Origin: Thermoplasmata archaeon
GTDB lineage: Archaea > Thermoplasmatota > Thermoplasmata > Lutacidiplasmatales > UBA184
Direction of reading: 5' to 3'
Assembly (NCBI GenBank): GCA_030038095.1
Contig: JASHPK010000017.1
Location: 8,689 to 72,688 of the forward strand
DNA length: 64,000 nucleotides
Shown: piece after piece, positions 14,395 to 57,935 of the stretch
Layout: each line of letters starts with the position of its first letter
Position numbering within the stretch: the stretch's first letter is position 1
Program-made: the position numbers and the translations under genes
The notes under the pieces: model-generated
Databases searched by the model: none
Seen by the model: the letters and a program-made list of their open reading frames with translations, nothing else
Told to the model about the DNA's origin: nothing

Positions 14395-14925
14395 ATGTCG
14401 AATCGACGCGGAATCGTGACGGTGATCGGGGCGCTGGCGGTGGCGGGGATCCTCGGGATCGGCGGAGGCGCGACCCTCGTCCTCGCCGCGATCGCGGACG
14501 GGGCGAACGGGTCCGCCGGGTCCTCGGCGGTCCCGGGCCAAGCCTGCCCCGCGCCGAGCAACTCCACCAACTCGAGTTCGGCCAATGTCTCCCGCGACAA
14601 CGCGAGCCTACCCGCGCCCTGCGGCTGCCCGCCGCCCCCCCGGAACGGCACGGCACCGCCGAGTCCGTCAGGTCCGGCGCGGCCCCCTCCACTCCCGTGC
14701 GGGTGCCCTCCCCCAAGCCGAGGCAACGATACCGTTCCGGCGAACTCGACGAACTTCTCTGGCCCACCGCCGAGCGGCTGCGGGTGCCTCCCTCCGCCAA
14801 TCGGTCCGGGGGGTACGACCGGGAACACCTCCGCCCTGCCCCCGGTGGCTCCTCCGGTTCCCGGATGCCGTCCGCCGGTCTACCCGGGCGGTTCGCCCAC
14901 GGGTCTTGGAGCGGCTCGTACGTAG
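14395..14925 (+). CDS. membrane-anchored Cys/Pro-rich protein with many N-glycosylation sequons
   Basis: ATG 14395 inside ORF 13375..14925. N-terminal TM IVTVIGALAVAGILGIGGGATLVLAAI. Repeated PCGCPPPP / PCGCPPPS / GCGCLPPP / PGCRPP units. About 10 N-x-S/T sequons. Confidence 0.5.
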   Translation: MSNRRGIVTVIGALAVAGILGIGGGATLVLAAIADGANGSAGSSAVPGQACPAPSNSTNSSSANVSRDNASLPAPCGCPPPPRNGTAPPSPSGPARPPPLPCGCPPPSRGNDTVPANSTNFSGPPPSGCGCLPPPIGPGGTTGNTSALPPVAPPVPGCRPPVYPGGSPTGLGAART

Positions 14926-31394: not shown

Positions 31395-31477
31395 TGCCGG
31401 GGCCAGGATTCGAACCTGGGAACTCCTGCGAGAGCAGATCTTGAGTCTGCCGCCTTTGGCCGCTCGGCCACCCCGGC
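31395..31477 (-). tRNA. tRNA-Leu(CAA), intron-less, no encoded CCA
   Basis: The minus strand folds as GCCGGGG TG GCC GAGCGGCCAAA GGC G GCAGA CTCAAGA TCTGC TCTCGCAGGAGTTC CCAGG TTCGAAT CCTGG CCCCGGC A. Confidence 0.9.
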
Positions 31478-37663: not shown

Positions 37664-38635
37664 ATGAGCGAACCGGTGGCCCGTACGACGATCTCCCACA
37701 CCCCCGGACTTGAGAGCGCGCCCCCGCGCCGGTTCTCTCGTCCGTCGCTGAACCGTCTGGGCCTCTCCCCGGGGAAGCGGACGCGCCTCAAGCGGCTTCT
37801 CTATGATCACGGCCCGGGGGGCGGCACGCTCCTCGTGCTCCCGATCGACCAGGGTCTCGAGCACGGGCCGGTCGACTTCTTCGCGAACCCGGAGTCGCTC
37901 GATCCCCAATACCAGTACGAGCTGGCGCACGAAGGGAAGTTCAGTGCGATCGCCCTCCACATCGGCCTCGCCGAGAAGTACTACCACGAGTACGCCGGGG
38001 ACGTCCCGCTCATCCTCAAGCTGAACGGGAAGACGGGGATCCCCTCGGACGCCCAGGCGTTCAGCGCGCTCACCGGGACGGTCGAGGACGCGGTGCGCCT
38101 CGGGGCGGAGGCGGTCGGCTACACGATCTACGTGGGCTCTCCCGCCCAGGACCGGGACTTCCTGCAGTTCCTCGGGATCCGCCGGGACGCGGAGCGCCTC
38201 GGCATGCCGGTGGTCGTCTGGGCCTATCCGCGCGGGGAGGCGGTCGCGAAGAAGGGCGGCAAGGAGAGTCTCTACGCGGTCGACTACGCCGCGCGCGTGG
38301 CGCTCGAACTCGGCGCGGACGTCGTGAAGGTGAACTATCCGGTCGCGTCGGAGAAGGACAAGGAGAGCCCGTCGCCGTACAACTCGCTCAATCTCGCCCC
38401 GACCGATGCGTTCCGCAAGGTCGTGGAGAGCGCCGGCCGAGCGCTCGTGCTCGTCTCGGGGGGCGAGAAGGTGGAGGACGCGGACCTCCTCCACAAGGTC
38501 CGCTCGAGCATGGACGCCGGCGCGACGGGGATCATCTTCGGACGCAACCTCTGGCAGCGGCCGAAGACCGAAGCGCTCCGGCTCACCCGGGAGCTGCATG
38601 CGATCTTCCGGGAGTACGCGCAGCCTCCGGGATAG
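37664..38635 (+). CDS. class I fructose-bisphosphate aldolase, DhnA/FbaB family
   Basis: 323 aa. LLVLPIDQGLEHGP, PLILKLNG, AVGYTIYVGS, VVVWAYPRG, GADVVKVNYP (Schiff-base Lys region), GIIFGRNLWQ. Co-linear with E. coli FbaB as I remember it. Confidence 0.8.
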   Translation: MSEPVARTTISHTPGLESAPPRRFSRPSLNRLGLSPGKRTRLKRLLYDHGPGGGTLLVLPIDQGLEHGPVDFFANPESLDPQYQYELAHEGKFSAIALHIGLAEKYYHEYAGDVPLILKLNGKTGIPSDAQAFSALTGTVEDAVRLGAEAVGYTIYVGSPAQDRDFLQFLGIRRDAERLGMPVVVWAYPRGEAVAKKGGKESLYAVDYAARVALELGADVVKVNYPVASEKDKESPSPYNSLNLAPTDAFRKVVESAGRALVLVSGGEKVEDADLLHKVRSSMDAGATGIIFGRNLWQRPKTEALRLTRELHAIFREYAQPPG

Positions 38636-39223: not shown

Positions 39224-40123
39224 TCAATCGACCGCGGGGTAAACCTGGCCCTCGGTGGGCAGGTGCTCGATCGGGATCCCTGCGAGGGTGTCCAGCCGCC
39301 CGTCGAGAGGCAGCCGGGCGATCACGACCCCGCCATACCGCTGGTAGACGCGGGTGGTGTGGAGGGTGAGGCACCGACCGGCGTAGAGCACGACGCCCAC
39401 GACATCGGGATCGTGCCCGCGCAAGATGACGCGAAGGCCGGTGGCCTTCAGGAACCGGTCCAAGTCCCGGGGCGTCCAGGCGAGGGCGGCCCCGCGCCGG
39501 ATCCTCGACGCCGAACACTCCGACCAAACGATCTCGCACAAACGGTCGTCATCGACCTGATCGAACGCCCGGGTCCACGGCTGCGGGAGCTCCCCCCTCG
39601 GGAATCCCGCGTGCGCGAGGTAGGCCCCGCTCGGGGTCACGGCCGCGAGCGGGCCCCGCTCCAGGAGGCCGAGGATTCGGTCGTAGCGCGACGACTCCGG
39701 ACCCCACAGCTCGTCGACCTCCTCCGAGAGCATGTGGGGGATGGCCGGCACCCGGCGGACCGTCTCGTGGTTGCCTTGCAAGAGGAAGACCCGATCCGGA
39801 CGCTCGGCCGCGAGCTCGAGGAGGTAGAGGGCGTTCGCGACCGAGCCCGCGCCGCAGTCGTCCGGGCTGCGGTCCACGTAGTCTCCCAGCCCGATGAGCG
39901 CCCGATCGCCCTCTCGGTATCGACGCACGGCCTCGGCGACGGACCGCCAATCCCCGTGGGAATCGCCGAAGACGACCGCCTCCGCTCCGCTGCCGGCCGG
40001 GATCTGCAGGAGAGGAGGTCGAACGGGCACGCGCTCCTCCAGCCGGTCGAGCAGCGCGTCCACCTCGTCGGAGGTGAGATGCAGGATCCCCTCCGGAGCG
40101 ATGAGAGGAGGTCGTTCCGCCAT
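39224..40123 (-). CDS. PPP-family Ser/Thr protein phosphatase (metallophosphoesterase)
   Basis: ATG 40123 (MAERPP). GDSHGD, GDYVDRSP and GNHE motifs in canonical order. Confidence 0.8.
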   Translation of the reverse strand: MAERPPLIAPEGILHLTSDEVDALLDRLEERVPVRPPLLQIPAGSGAEAVVFGDSHGDWRSVAEAVRRYREGDRALIGLGDYVDRSPDDCGAGSVANALYLLELAAERPDRVFLLQGNHETVRRVPAIPHMLSEEVDELWGPESSRYDRILGLLERGPLAAVTPSGAYLAHAGFPRGELPQPWTRAFDQVDDDRLCEIVWSECSASRIRRGAALAWTPRDLDRFLKATGLRVILRGHDPDVVGVVLYAGRCLTLHTTRVYQRYGGVVIARLPLDGRLDTLAGIPIEHLPTEGQVYPAVD

Positions 40124-40177
40124 GCCTCGAGCCTGCGCGGTCGAACTATTCCGAGCCGTAAAGTGCGGGGGGCCGGA

Positions 40178-40212
40178 GTTCCCGGAGGGTGGCCCCGCGG
40201 GCCGACCCACCC
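40178..40212 (-). other. putative tRNA-Leu(TAG) intron 2 (35 nt, T-loop 59/60)
   Basis: GGGTGGGTCGGCCCGCGGGGCCACCCTCCGGGAAC contains an internal GGGTGG/CCACCC hairpin. Removal restores T-loop TTCAAAT. Confidence 0.65.
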
Positions 40213-40259
40213 TTTGAACCGGCGCATGCCCTAGGCAACAGGGTCCTAAGCCCTGCCTC

Positions 40260-40286
40260 GCAGGCCCCGACGGCCGTGGCCGACGG
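40260..40286 (-). other. putative tRNA-Leu(TAG) intron 1 (27 nt, between D-loop and 3' D-stem)
   Basis: CCGTCGGCCACGGCCGTCGGGGCCTGC. Its 3' CCTGC can pair with the downstream exon GCAGG. Boundaries are ambiguous by 1-2 nt. Confidence 0.55.
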
Positions 40287-40338
40287 TTTGGCCGAGCTGG
40301 AGCACCCCCGCACGAGCACCACGATCAAACCCGCGAAG

Positions 40339-40445
40339 TAGCCCCGGCAGGAATTCCGGCCGTCGGGGTCGCGGACCCCCGGGGCGTTCGAACCTGCGTC
40401 GCGAGATCCAGAGTCTCGCATGATTGGCCACTACACTACGGGGCT
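40339..40445 (-). tRNA. tRNA-Gln(CTG) interrupted by a non-canonical T-loop intron
   Basis: The minus strand reads AGCCCCG TA GTGTAGTGGCCAATCATG CGAGA CTCTGGA TCTCG CGAC GCAGG TTCGAA [34 nt] T CCTGC CGGGGCT A. The exons give a 73-nt cloverleaf, and the 5' part is co-linear with archaeal tRNA-Gln as I remember it. Confidence 0.8.
40353..40386 (-). other. putative tRNA-Gln intron (34 nt, T-loop 59/60)
   Basis: CGCCCCGGGGGTCCGCGACCCCGACGGCCGGAAT with an internal GGGGTC/GACCCC hairpin. Removal restores TTCGAAT. Confidence 0.65.
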
Positions 40446-40470
40446 ACGGGGCAAGCCAGCGAGGGTCGGT

Positions 40471-40477
40471 TGATAAA
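40471..40477 (-). promoter_or_regulatory. TATA-like box for the tRNA-Gln/tRNA-Leu pair
   Basis: The minus strand reads AACGTTTATCAACC with TTTATCA 26-32 nt upstream of the tRNA-Gln 5' end. The two tRNAs are separated by only 27 nt, so co-transcription is likely. Confidence 0.35.
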
Positions 40478-40622
40478 CGTTGCCGCGCCGGCCCCGTGCC
40501 GGGCGGCTCCGACGAGGTGGTGGGGGACCGGTCTCTCCTTCGTCCGGTTCCGCGCGCGCGTGCGAGCGCTTCGCACAAATAGGGCGTCAGGGTGCGGCCT
40601 TGGTCCCTGCCGGGGAGGTCGC

Positions 40623-44586: not shown

Positions 44587-44665
44587 TCGCGCGCCCCCGT
44601 CGCGGGTCCTACGCATTGTGCCCGCCGAAGTTGTTAAGCGGCGGTCCCCCTCCCCCCGCCCCGGT

Positions 44666-44737
44666 GGGCACGTAGATCAGCGGAAGATCGCTGCTTTCGC
44701 AAAGCAGAGGTCGGGGGTTCAAATCCCCCCGTGTCCA
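44666..44737 (+). tRNA. tRNA-Ala(CGC), intron-less, no encoded CCA
   Basis: GGGCACG TA GATC AGCGGAA GATC G CTGCT TTCGCAA AGCAG AGGTC GGGGG TTCAAAT CCCCC CGTGTCC A. The G3:U70 identity pair is present. Confidence 0.9.
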
Positions 44738-44832
44738 TTTCCCGAGGTTCACGGGTCTCGGAACGAGAGATCCGTGGGGGGGCGACCGAGTGCACGCCCC
44801 TGCCGATCCACCCATCGTTGGGTCGAGTCGAC

Positions 44833-57650: not shown

Positions 57651-57839
57651 GGCTCTCAACCTGCCTTTCGGCCCGGGAAGGATGGACGGGCGAGTGATAT
57701 ACCTTCTCATGGAGGAACGACCCGCGTACCGTCCCCCGAGCGCGAGCGCGGCGACCCGAGACCGTCGGGATAGAAAATCGTCTCGGCGTTCTCCCGATGC
57801 GGCGAATAGTGTGCACCCTCAAGAAAACCTAACGAAGGG

Positions 57840-57851
57840 TTTATTATTCAA
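57840..57851. promoter_or_regulatory. AT-rich patch (GGTTTATTATTCAAG)
   Basis: This is the most AT-rich dodecamer I noticed in the window. It lies about 85 nt upstream of the RHH sORF and in the divergent region with the DUF1059 gene. A promoter role is a guess. Confidence 0.25.
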
Positions 57852-57935
57852 GAACCCCGCCGTACCTTCGGCCACGCTGGCGGAACGACGTCCGCCGGCG
57901 GACGACTTTCCGGGTAAGTCGGAGGACCAGAGCAG

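Follow-up and report, generated by a model that had tools for sequence, protein, structure and literature searches.

Three predicted bulge-helix-bulge introns in the T- and D-loops of a conserved tRNA-Gln/tRNA-Leu gene pair of Lutacidiplasmatales

How do two adjacent tRNA genes yield functional products when short inserts break the T-loops of both and, in one of them, the D-loop as well? The question is raised by a stretch of 64,000 nucleotides (nt) from a Thermoplasmata archaeon (assembly GCA_030038095.1, contig JASHPK010000017.1, positions 8,689 to 72,688; the whole stretch is referred to below as the window), in which genes for tRNA-Gln(CUG) and tRNA-Leu(UAG) lie in tandem on the minus strand. 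An earlier note on this DNA had placed introns at T-loop position 59/60 of both genes and in the D-loop of tRNA-Leu, had expected a broad-specificity splicing endonuclease to act on them, and had thought of intron gain by transposition. The results presented here indicate that the pair is very probably a functional two-tRNA operon with three protein-spliced bulge-helix-bulge (BHB) introns.

The tRNA-Gln precursor (40445..40339, minus strand as for all features below; 107 nt, AGCCCCG...CGGGGCUA) consists of two exons and one intron. Exon 1 (40387..40445, tRNA positions 1-59) comprises the acceptor 5' strand, D arm, anticodon arm, T-stem 5' strand and U54-A59. It is followed by a 34-nt T-loop intron at 59/60 (40353..40386, hereafter Gln-T) and by exon 2 (40339..40352), which carries U60, the T-stem 3' strand, the acceptor 3' strand and the discriminator A. 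An intergenic spacer of 27 nt (40312..40338) separates it from the tRNA-Leu precursor (40311..40164; 148 nt, GCGGGGG...CCCCCGCA). Here, exon 1 (40288..40311, positions 1-21) holds the acceptor 5' strand, the D-stem 5' strand and the D-loop up to A21. A 27-nt D-loop intron at 21/22 follows (40261..40287, ACCG...CCTG; Leu-D). Exon 2 (40213..40260) runs from C22 through the D-stem 3' strand, the UAG anticodon arm, the long variable arm and the T-stem 5' strand to U54-A59, a 35-nt T-loop intron lies at 59/60 (40178..40212; Leu-T), and exon 3 (40164..40177) has the same make-up as exon 2 of tRNA-Gln. Both genes have perfect acceptor stems of 7 base pairs (bp), AGCCCCG/CGGGGCT in Gln and GCGGGGG/CCCCCGC in Leu, as well as intact 7-nt anticodon loops without an insert at the canonical position 37/38. 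Neither encodes CCA.

Gene finders mishandle the unspliced DNA, as had been foreseen in the earlier note. ARAGORN called Gln as a defective 73-nt tRNA with a broken T arm and missed Leu altogether, while the Rfam tRNA model gave Gln 24 bits, below its threshold of 29 bits, and did not match Leu. Removal of the 34-nt insert resulted in a clean tRNA-Gln(ctg), and removal of 27 plus 35 nt in a clean class-II tRNA-Leu(tag); when just one of the two Leu inserts was taken out, ARAGORN made no Leu call. The spliced T-loops read UUCGAAU (Gln) and UUCAAAU (Leu). The predicted junctions (arrows mark the splice sites) are GGUUCGAA↓UCCUGCC for Gln, GGCCAA↓CGAGG for the Leu D-loop and GGUUCAAA↓UCCGGCC for the Leu T-loop or, in longer form, GGUUCGAA↓UCCUGCCGGGGCUA, CUCGGCCAA↓CGAGGCAGGG and GGUUCAAA↓UCCGGCCCCCC. 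The placement of the inserts, the lengths to be removed, the stems and the undisturbed anticodon arms all agree with what the note had described, and its hairpins in the T-loop inserts were recovered, since the inserts fold into stable hairpins. Only the D-loop boundary needed correction: the note had read the insert as CCGT...CTGC at 22/23, and the actual boundary lies 1 nt further 5', as shown by two natural alleles described below.

In a blind scan, both strands of the window were searched for BHB geometry, each candidate or candidate pair was spliced, and the products were submitted to ARAGORN. This retrieved precisely 40353-40386, 40261-40287 and 40178-40212. No further credible interrupted tRNA was found on either strand, the remaining matches being located within open reading frames (ORFs) or around intact tRNAs. 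Candidates for Pro(ggg) near 35.6 kb and Arg(gcg) near 2.15 kb were rejected for their position inside ORFs. Matches around the two other tRNA genes of the window, Leu-CAA (31395-31477) and Ala-CGC (44665-44738), which are uninterrupted as previously reported, were rejected as artefacts of intact genes. A Leu(gag) candidate near 57.8 kb, in an AT-rich intergenic stretch, was judged non-credible; the region 57750-57870 has a local GC content of about 53%, against 68% overall, reads ttcttgaataataaacccttcgttaggttttcttgagg on the minus strand and is probably an intergenic promoter region. Given that the inserts measure 24-35 nt among relatives and that no Rfam intron family was matched, the ribozyme core of hundreds of nucleotides that characterizes group I and group II self-splicing introns is not present.

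By definition, a BHB motif has two 3-nt bulges on opposite strands, with a 4-bp helix between them (PMC6379350, PMC5829648). Clean motifs of this kind had not been seen by eye in the earlier note, but all three exon-intron junctions can form BHB folds, and these are conserved. We describe them by an outer helix (h), a central helix (H) and an inner helix (h'), with splice sites between bases 2 and 3 of each 3-nt bulge. In Gln-T, the 5-bp T stem serves as h, U54-G57 pair with CGGA near the intron 3' end to form a 4-bp H (UUCG/CGGA) flanked by bulges AA↓C and AU↓U, and h' (GCC/GGC) leads into an inner hairpin. The minimum free energy (MFE) fold of the window's Gln precursor is this textbook hBHBh' structure. 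Leu-D has GGCC/GGCC as H and CCG/CGG as h', with AA↓A and UG↓C as bulges. Its outer helix (CUC/GAG) pairs C16-U17-C17a with G23-A24-G25 and thereby employs GCUC, a duplicate of the D-stem strand that lies within the D-loop. Leu-T again uses the 5-bp T stem as h; its H is limited to 3 bp (UUC/GGA, U54-C56), next to which A57 stands opposite G, its bulges read AA↓G and AC↓U, and its h' (GG/CC) extends into a long imperfect hairpin. Gln-T and Leu-D are thus strict, having both bulges and the 4-bp helix, and neither shows the missing or disrupted bulge or flanking helix of a relaxed motif. Leu-T approximates the strict form and is borderline relaxed solely through the A·G opposition adjoining its 5' bulge. 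As the T arm is shaped like the anticodon arm, position 59/60 in the former corresponds exactly to the canonical 37/38 in the latter.

Other registers were considered for both Leu introns. For the T-loop, 56/57 and 58/59 were rejected, as the final two intron bases vary freely among relatives while the preceding four keep GGRR. For the D-loop, a junction at 22/23 gives an ARAGORN-valid tRNA too, yet the base that it would place at position 22 varies (A/T/G/C), whereas the C of the 21/22 junction is invariant; it is also ruled out by intron-less alleles reading CAACGAGG.

Relatives were retrieved via the neighbouring DeoC/LacD-family aldolase gene (37664-38632), yielding 73 loci from species-representative genomes. 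Thermoplasmata metagenome-assembled genomes (MAGs), including Candidatus Lutacidiplasma silvani, account for 64 of them. The GC content of the window, 68.3%, is close to the ~69% given for Lutacidiplasmatales (PMC9287336). The source is a GC-rich soil member of the Thermoplasmata, order Lutacidiplasmatales, and not of the Thermoproteales. The aldolase itself has relatives with 52-64% identity in MAGs of Chloroflexota, Actinomycetes and Melainabacteria (L060, L062-L064, L067, L068), a distribution that may reflect inter-domain transfer. At one locus (L007, JASHTC010000151.1) synteny ends past tsr3, and the remaining 2.9 kb contains no tRNA pair, phosphoesterase or ABC-transporter genes.

The tandem Gln-Leu locus is found in synteny at 56 of the 73 loci, in related Thermoplasmata. 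The recurrence of the same architecture in 56 independent assemblies puts the observation beyond chance. Exons and introns behave very differently. Among 57 genomes, Gln exon 1 is invariant save for five variable columns and Gln exon 2 is identical throughout (57/57), as is Leu exon 3 (56/56), against 53-56 distinct intron sequences. The spacer, 24-33 nt long in relatives, is unconserved in sequence. Leu intron lengths differ as well, the D-loop intron measuring 0, 24, 27, 30 or 35 nt and the T-loop intron 32, 34 or 35 nt. The Gln intron, on the other hand, is 34 nt long in 57/57 genomes despite 53 different sequences, a constancy for which the BHB motif alone offers no explanation. An ARAGORN call of tRNA-Pro(agg) at L034 looks like coding sequence and was discarded.

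The pairing required for splicing is maintained throughout this diversity. From the 57 Gln precursors, RNAalifold predicted the hBHBh' structure independently. Paired states occupy 99.4% of the alignment cells concerned, compared with at most 49% when the partners are slid. In the central helix H of Gln-T all cells are paired (100%), A and G alternating across from U54 and U55, and h' is 95% paired, with compensatory changes among the 53 distinct sequences. For Leu-D, paired cells number 215/216 in H, 158/162 in h and 153/162 over the initial 3 bp of h', with GC/CG swaps. For Leu-T, the 3-bp H is present in 56/56 genomes and the first 2 bp of h' in 108/112 cells, and the inner helix covaries. 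Over 25 Leu sequences of equal length, pairing reaches 99.1%, against no more than 60% with partners slid, and RNAalifold reported 11 covarying pairs. The T stem, acting as h in both T-loop introns, is 100% paired, and the first h' pairs are maintained at 94-98%, with compensatory changes. As expected of bulge bases, the two intron bases preceding each 3' splice site of Leu vary freely. Next to the 5' splice bulge of Leu-T, A57 faces G in 54/56 genomes, a conserved purine-purine opposition; a U at this place would give a strict 4-bp helix.

Two relatives carry natural alleles without the Leu D-loop intron. In L020 and L022 this intron is absent and the T-loop intron present, and the genomic sequence ...GGCCAACGAGG... 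equals the product predicted from the BHB motif, fixing the intron at 21/22. The genes (L020 3883-4003, L022 15472-15592) are detected by ARAGORN after removal of the T-loop intron alone. Both loci are nested among intron bearers in a neighbour-joining tree built on the aldolase, a single gene, so that precise loss of the D-loop intron is the simplest, though tentative, reading. A third locus, L058, belongs to a more distant Thermoplasmata MAG (aldolase 73% identical). At its syntenic position (14509-14581) the tRNA-Gln(CTG) gene is uninterrupted, its T-loop reading TTCGAAT, and no tRNA-Leu lies behind it. The use of L058 as a clean outgroup was set aside; its placement relative to the intron-bearing clade does not resolve in the aldolase tree. 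When the metagenome collection was searched with the spliced Gln junction, without a positive control, 66 matches were obtained, none with this tRNA body. The best reached 65/73 identities, and they represent other tRNAs (Gln-UUG, Met and others), mostly on lower-GC contigs. Several unrelated low-GC archaeal metagenome contigs, L112 and L118 among them, share the same tRNA-Gln 3' half and have an apparent insert just after the anticodon (TTG), resembling an ordinary intron at the canonical position.

A BRE/TATA-like box (B recognition element/TATA), GGCAACGTTTATCAAC, is located at 40469..40484, 22-37 nt upstream of the mature Gln 5' end (-37 to -22). Its distance from the gene is maintained in nearly all of the 57 loci, with flanks that are GC-rich and unconserved. 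No comparable promoter box is found in the Gln-Leu spacer of the window or its relatives, so tRNA-Leu is most likely co-transcribed with tRNA-Gln from one promoter. A metallophosphoesterase gene on the same strand begins 41 nt past tRNA-Leu (ATG at 40123), and in relatives an ATG or GTG follows tRNA-Leu after about 28-40 nt. This gene may share the tRNA transcript, or its promoter may overlap the tRNA 3' end.

These elements can be combined into the following model. The single BRE/TATA promoter would give rise to a Gln(CUG)-Leu(UAG) precursor with three introns, one in Gln (34 nt, at 59/60) and two in Leu (27 nt at 21/22 and 35 nt at 59/60). In the T-loop introns, the T stem would fill the role that the anticodon stem plays at 37/38, with U54-C56, together with G57 in Gln, pairing with intron 3' bases ahead of a 2-nt tail. 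In the D-loop intron, the in-loop copy of the D-stem strand, GCUC, would pair with the 3' D-stem strand and so supply the outer helix. An α'2 homodimeric endonuclease would cut both bulges of each motif independently of the tRNA body. The exons would be sealed by an RtcB-type ligase, both tRNAs freed by RNase P and RNase Z, and CCA added.

The enzyme assumed in this model was sought among archaeal splicing endonucleases (EndA). Using five EndA sequences, tblastn found none in the window or the 73 syntenic loci. Known EndA sequences led to Methanomassiliicoccales enzymes and from there to a GC-rich soil family of 350-aa proteins, 72-94% identical to each other and with at least 120 close relatives. 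One member, P0311 (350 aa), is encoded on JAKIWT010000022.1, a MAG named 'Thermoplasmata archaeon', whose accession falls within the JAKIVT-JAKIWX series of Lutacidiplasmatales MAGs (Sheridan series). Among the EndA contigs looked up, P0311 alone could be tied to this series. Eight others come from different assemblies, several resembling bulk metagenome assemblies, or from MAGs outside our list of loci, and P0282 led to nothing but unbinned soil contigs. The EndA loci (L074-L095) share a conserved neighbourhood, with a PDDEXK_19 plus HTH_3 gene on the opposite strand just upstream and, downstream, a HAD-family hydrolase on the opposite strand followed by a DUF1028 gene.

Soil-family EndA proteins contain the Pfam domains tRNA_int_endo_N and tRNA_int_endo twice each and align end to end with the α'2 EndA of A. 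fulgidus; P0238 aligns with 1r0v/2gjw over residues 44-335. In repeat 2, the motifs FRAY, HHAKY and GVKK align with the catalytic Tyr, His and Lys residues. According to a MAFFT alignment, P0311 and P0238 lack the 11-residue Crenarchaea-specific loop (CSL) seen in Sulfolobales α subunits, and so do the enzymes of M. jannaschii, A. fulgidus and M. kandleri; neither P0311 nor P0238 shows an extra C-terminal insert. On this alignment, the predicted EndA of the lineage is an ordinary α'2 two-repeat enzyme without a specificity loop (CSL/L1, ASL/L2 or L3). This is consistent with the reported restriction of Cluster II Euryarchaeota to α'2 enzymes (PMC5829648), which have been described as narrow in specificity (PMC6379350, PMC5829648). 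Two strict motifs, a third that departs from strictness by a single A·G opposition, and an α'2 EndA lacking the 11-residue loop speak against the broad-specificity enzyme proposed in the earlier note, with the A·G-containing Leu-T motif as a caveat.

A number of points weigh against the interpretation as a spliced operon. Folding energies are unremarkable: shuffle z-scores of about -1 (-0.5 to -1.5, in DNA of 68% GC) are not significant and were discarded as evidence. The exact BHB fold is the single-sequence MFE structure in only 21/56 Gln precursors, and for Leu, whose MFE is -84.3, adopting the BHB conformers costs 2.3 and 3.4 kcal/mol, the T-loop register being the one at +3.4. The BHB conformers are energetically accessible but not special, and the case for the motifs consequently rests on geometry and on the relatives rather than on stability. 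Leu-T is not a strict motif, with A57 facing G in nearly all genomes, and its 3-bp H was not predicted by RNAalifold from the Leu alignment; a narrow-specificity α'2 EndA would have to accept this A·G-containing substrate. The link between EndA and the lineage runs through the accession series and organism name of a sister MAG rather than through the window's own genome, and would hold to the extent that these do. Transcription as a single unit, cleavage, ligation and end processing we infer from established archaeal tRNA biology. Finally, the search for uninterrupted copies covered the locus and the metagenome collection, and the metagenome scan had no positive control.

The alternative that fares best, improbable as it is, holds that relaxed introns were recently transposed into the same T-loop site of both genes and that their removal needs a broad-specificity EndA of the (αβ)2, ε2 or loop-bearing type. 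It draws on the occurrence of a 59/60 intron in both genes, on the similar 3' ends of Gln-T and Leu-T (CCGGRAAY), on the A·G opposition that keeps the central helix of Leu-T from being strictly canonical, and on reviews that link non-canonical or multiple introns to broad-specificity enzymes (PMC4090602, PMC4033280, PMC5829648). Against this, Gln-T and Leu-D form strict hBHBh' motifs kept in 54-57 genomes, and the lineage EndA, as far as it can be assigned, is of the α'2 type without a CSL insert. The similarity of the 3' ends follows from the pairing that they must maintain with the conserved UUCG or UUCA of the T-loop. Outside these ends, the cores of Gln-T and Leu-T align with a score of 1.07 when taken from one genome and of 1.14 when taken from different genomes (standard deviation about 2.9), with shuffled sequences at -1.05, so that sharing a genome brings no added similarity. 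All three introns occur throughout the clade, with lengths that follow the aldolase tree, and go back to the common ancestor of the 56 genomes. There is, in short, no evidence of recent transposition of the kind suggested in the earlier note. An ancient duplication or transposition may nevertheless be at the origin of the introns.

Less probable still is that the genes are decaying or insertion-disrupted tRNA pseudogenes, silent, with junk or the footprint of a mobile element as inserts and intact copies elsewhere. The rejection of the unspliced sequences by ARAGORN and Rfam would fit such a state, and so would the restricted search for copies mentioned above. Decay is difficult to reconcile, however, with exons that are essentially invariant in 57 species, 3' exons that are 100% identical, and a conserved promoter box, at a locus where introns, spacer and flanks diverge. 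Near-invariant exons, diverse introns, and insert ends that retain BHB pairing through wobble and compensatory changes together argue for functional genes. Archaea usually have one gene per isoacceptor, and no uninterrupted copy of this Gln body appeared among the 66 metagenome matches; this answers in part the check for intact isoacceptors proposed in the earlier note, within the limit set by the lacking positive control. That the inserts are retained, giving mature tRNAs with enlarged T- and D-loops and extra hairpins, is scarcely credible: beyond the stable hairpin in each insert it has no direct support, intron-less alleles with a junction precisely as predicted are tolerated, insert sequence is free except where the BHB motif requires it, a pattern of splicing signals and not of a functional domain, and the T- and D-loop residues interrupted by the inserts form the tRNA elbow.

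The reading as an operon with three spliced introns bears on how intron position and enzyme specificity are thought to be related. According to reviews, Euryarchaeota with α4 or α'2 enzymes carry only single introns at 37/38 (PMC4090602, PMC4033280, PMC5829648). An abundant Thermoplasmata order of soil and peat departs from that pattern, the canonical geometry being copied onto the T arm and the D-loop. We consider it possible, if somewhat less likely than not, that the whole order has kept strict BHB introns in the T and D elbow loops since its common ancestor, together with a plain, loop-less α'2 EndA. If so, neither a non-canonical position nor several introns per gene would require a broad-specificity enzyme, in contradiction to the co-evolution rule usually applied to Cluster II Euryarchaeota. 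In that case, the constant 34-nt length of the Gln intron (57/57) and the conserved G facing A57 would suggest that the introns are themselves under selection, which might serve to delay elbow formation until splicing has taken place or to mask a T-arm integrase target.

The locus makes it possible to test cleanly if narrow-specificity enzymes are limited by the position of an intron or by the strictness of its motif, and its approximately 56 natural variants plus one precise intron loss constitute a ready mutational series. There is a practical side as well: ARAGORN annotation and Rfam-style scans of unspliced DNA under-count or mis-call Gln(CUG) and Leu(UAG), which affects MAG completeness statistics. 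The relevance is moderate for specialists in tRNA processing and practical for MAG annotation.

Earlier work has documented BHB introns at 59/60 and at D-arm sites, as well as tRNAs interrupted two or three times, for the most part in Crenarchaeota, Nanoarchaeota, Thaumarchaeota, Korarchaeum, ARMAN and M. kandleri (PMC4090602, PMC4033280, PMC8450103). Our full-text literature searches returned no report of such introns in Thermoplasmata, and the paper describing the order mentions tRNAs as a count only (PMC9287336). The closest likeness in form is to the introns of Crenarchaeota, especially Thermoproteales (Sugahara 2008 and Fujishima 2010, via PMC4090602 and PMC4033280). These are likewise short, located outside 37/38 and bounded by BHB-type motifs. 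Their listed positions include 59/60 and, in the D arm, 20/21 and 22/23, with up to three introns per gene, and they are missed by gene finders, as here. The differences are equally clear. The present lineage belongs to the Thermoplasmata, within Cluster II Euryarchaeota, its motifs are strict or near-strict instead of hBH, HBh' or bulge-helix-loop (BHL), and its introns show no similarity between tRNAs. Its predicted EndA is α'2 without the CSL, unlike the crenarchaeal (αβ)2 enzymes, which possess it.

Korarchaeum cryptofilum combines a homodimeric two-repeat EndA with non-canonical introns and has been called the sole α2 archaeon to do so (PMC4033280). Its enzyme, however, has the specificity loop shared with (αβ)2 enzymes, of which the aligned Lutacidiplasmatales EndA shows none; Lutacidiplasmatales would be a second α2 case, without the loop. 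Among Euryarchaeota, pre-tRNA-Glu(UUC) of Methanopyrus kandleri has two introns, one of them in the D-loop, and an EndA lacking the specificity loop (PMC5829648). There, the introns are a canonical one and a relaxed D-loop HBh' that is poorly cleaved in vitro, and the EndA is (αβ)2, whereas the D-loop motif described here is a strict BHB and neither tRNA has an intron at 37/38. The geometry is that of euryarchaeal 37/38 introns cut by α4 or α'2 EndA, in which two 3-nt bulges separate a 5-bp stem, a central helix of 4 bp and an inner helix (PMC6379350), but it is formed by the T arm and by an alternative pairing of D-loop and D-stem instead of the anticodon arm. The ectopic introns of Cyanidioschyzon merolae are similar in being BHB-dependent, situated in D and T arms, and several to a gene (PMC3728597, PMC9602550); they reside in eukaryotic nuclear genes, are served by an enzyme of other composition and have no evolutionary link to the present locus. 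Compared with these systems, the kind of intron is already known. What is new is its occurrence in a Thermoplasmata order, the combination of strict motifs at non-canonical positions with a predicted loop-less α'2 enzyme, and the depth of conservation.

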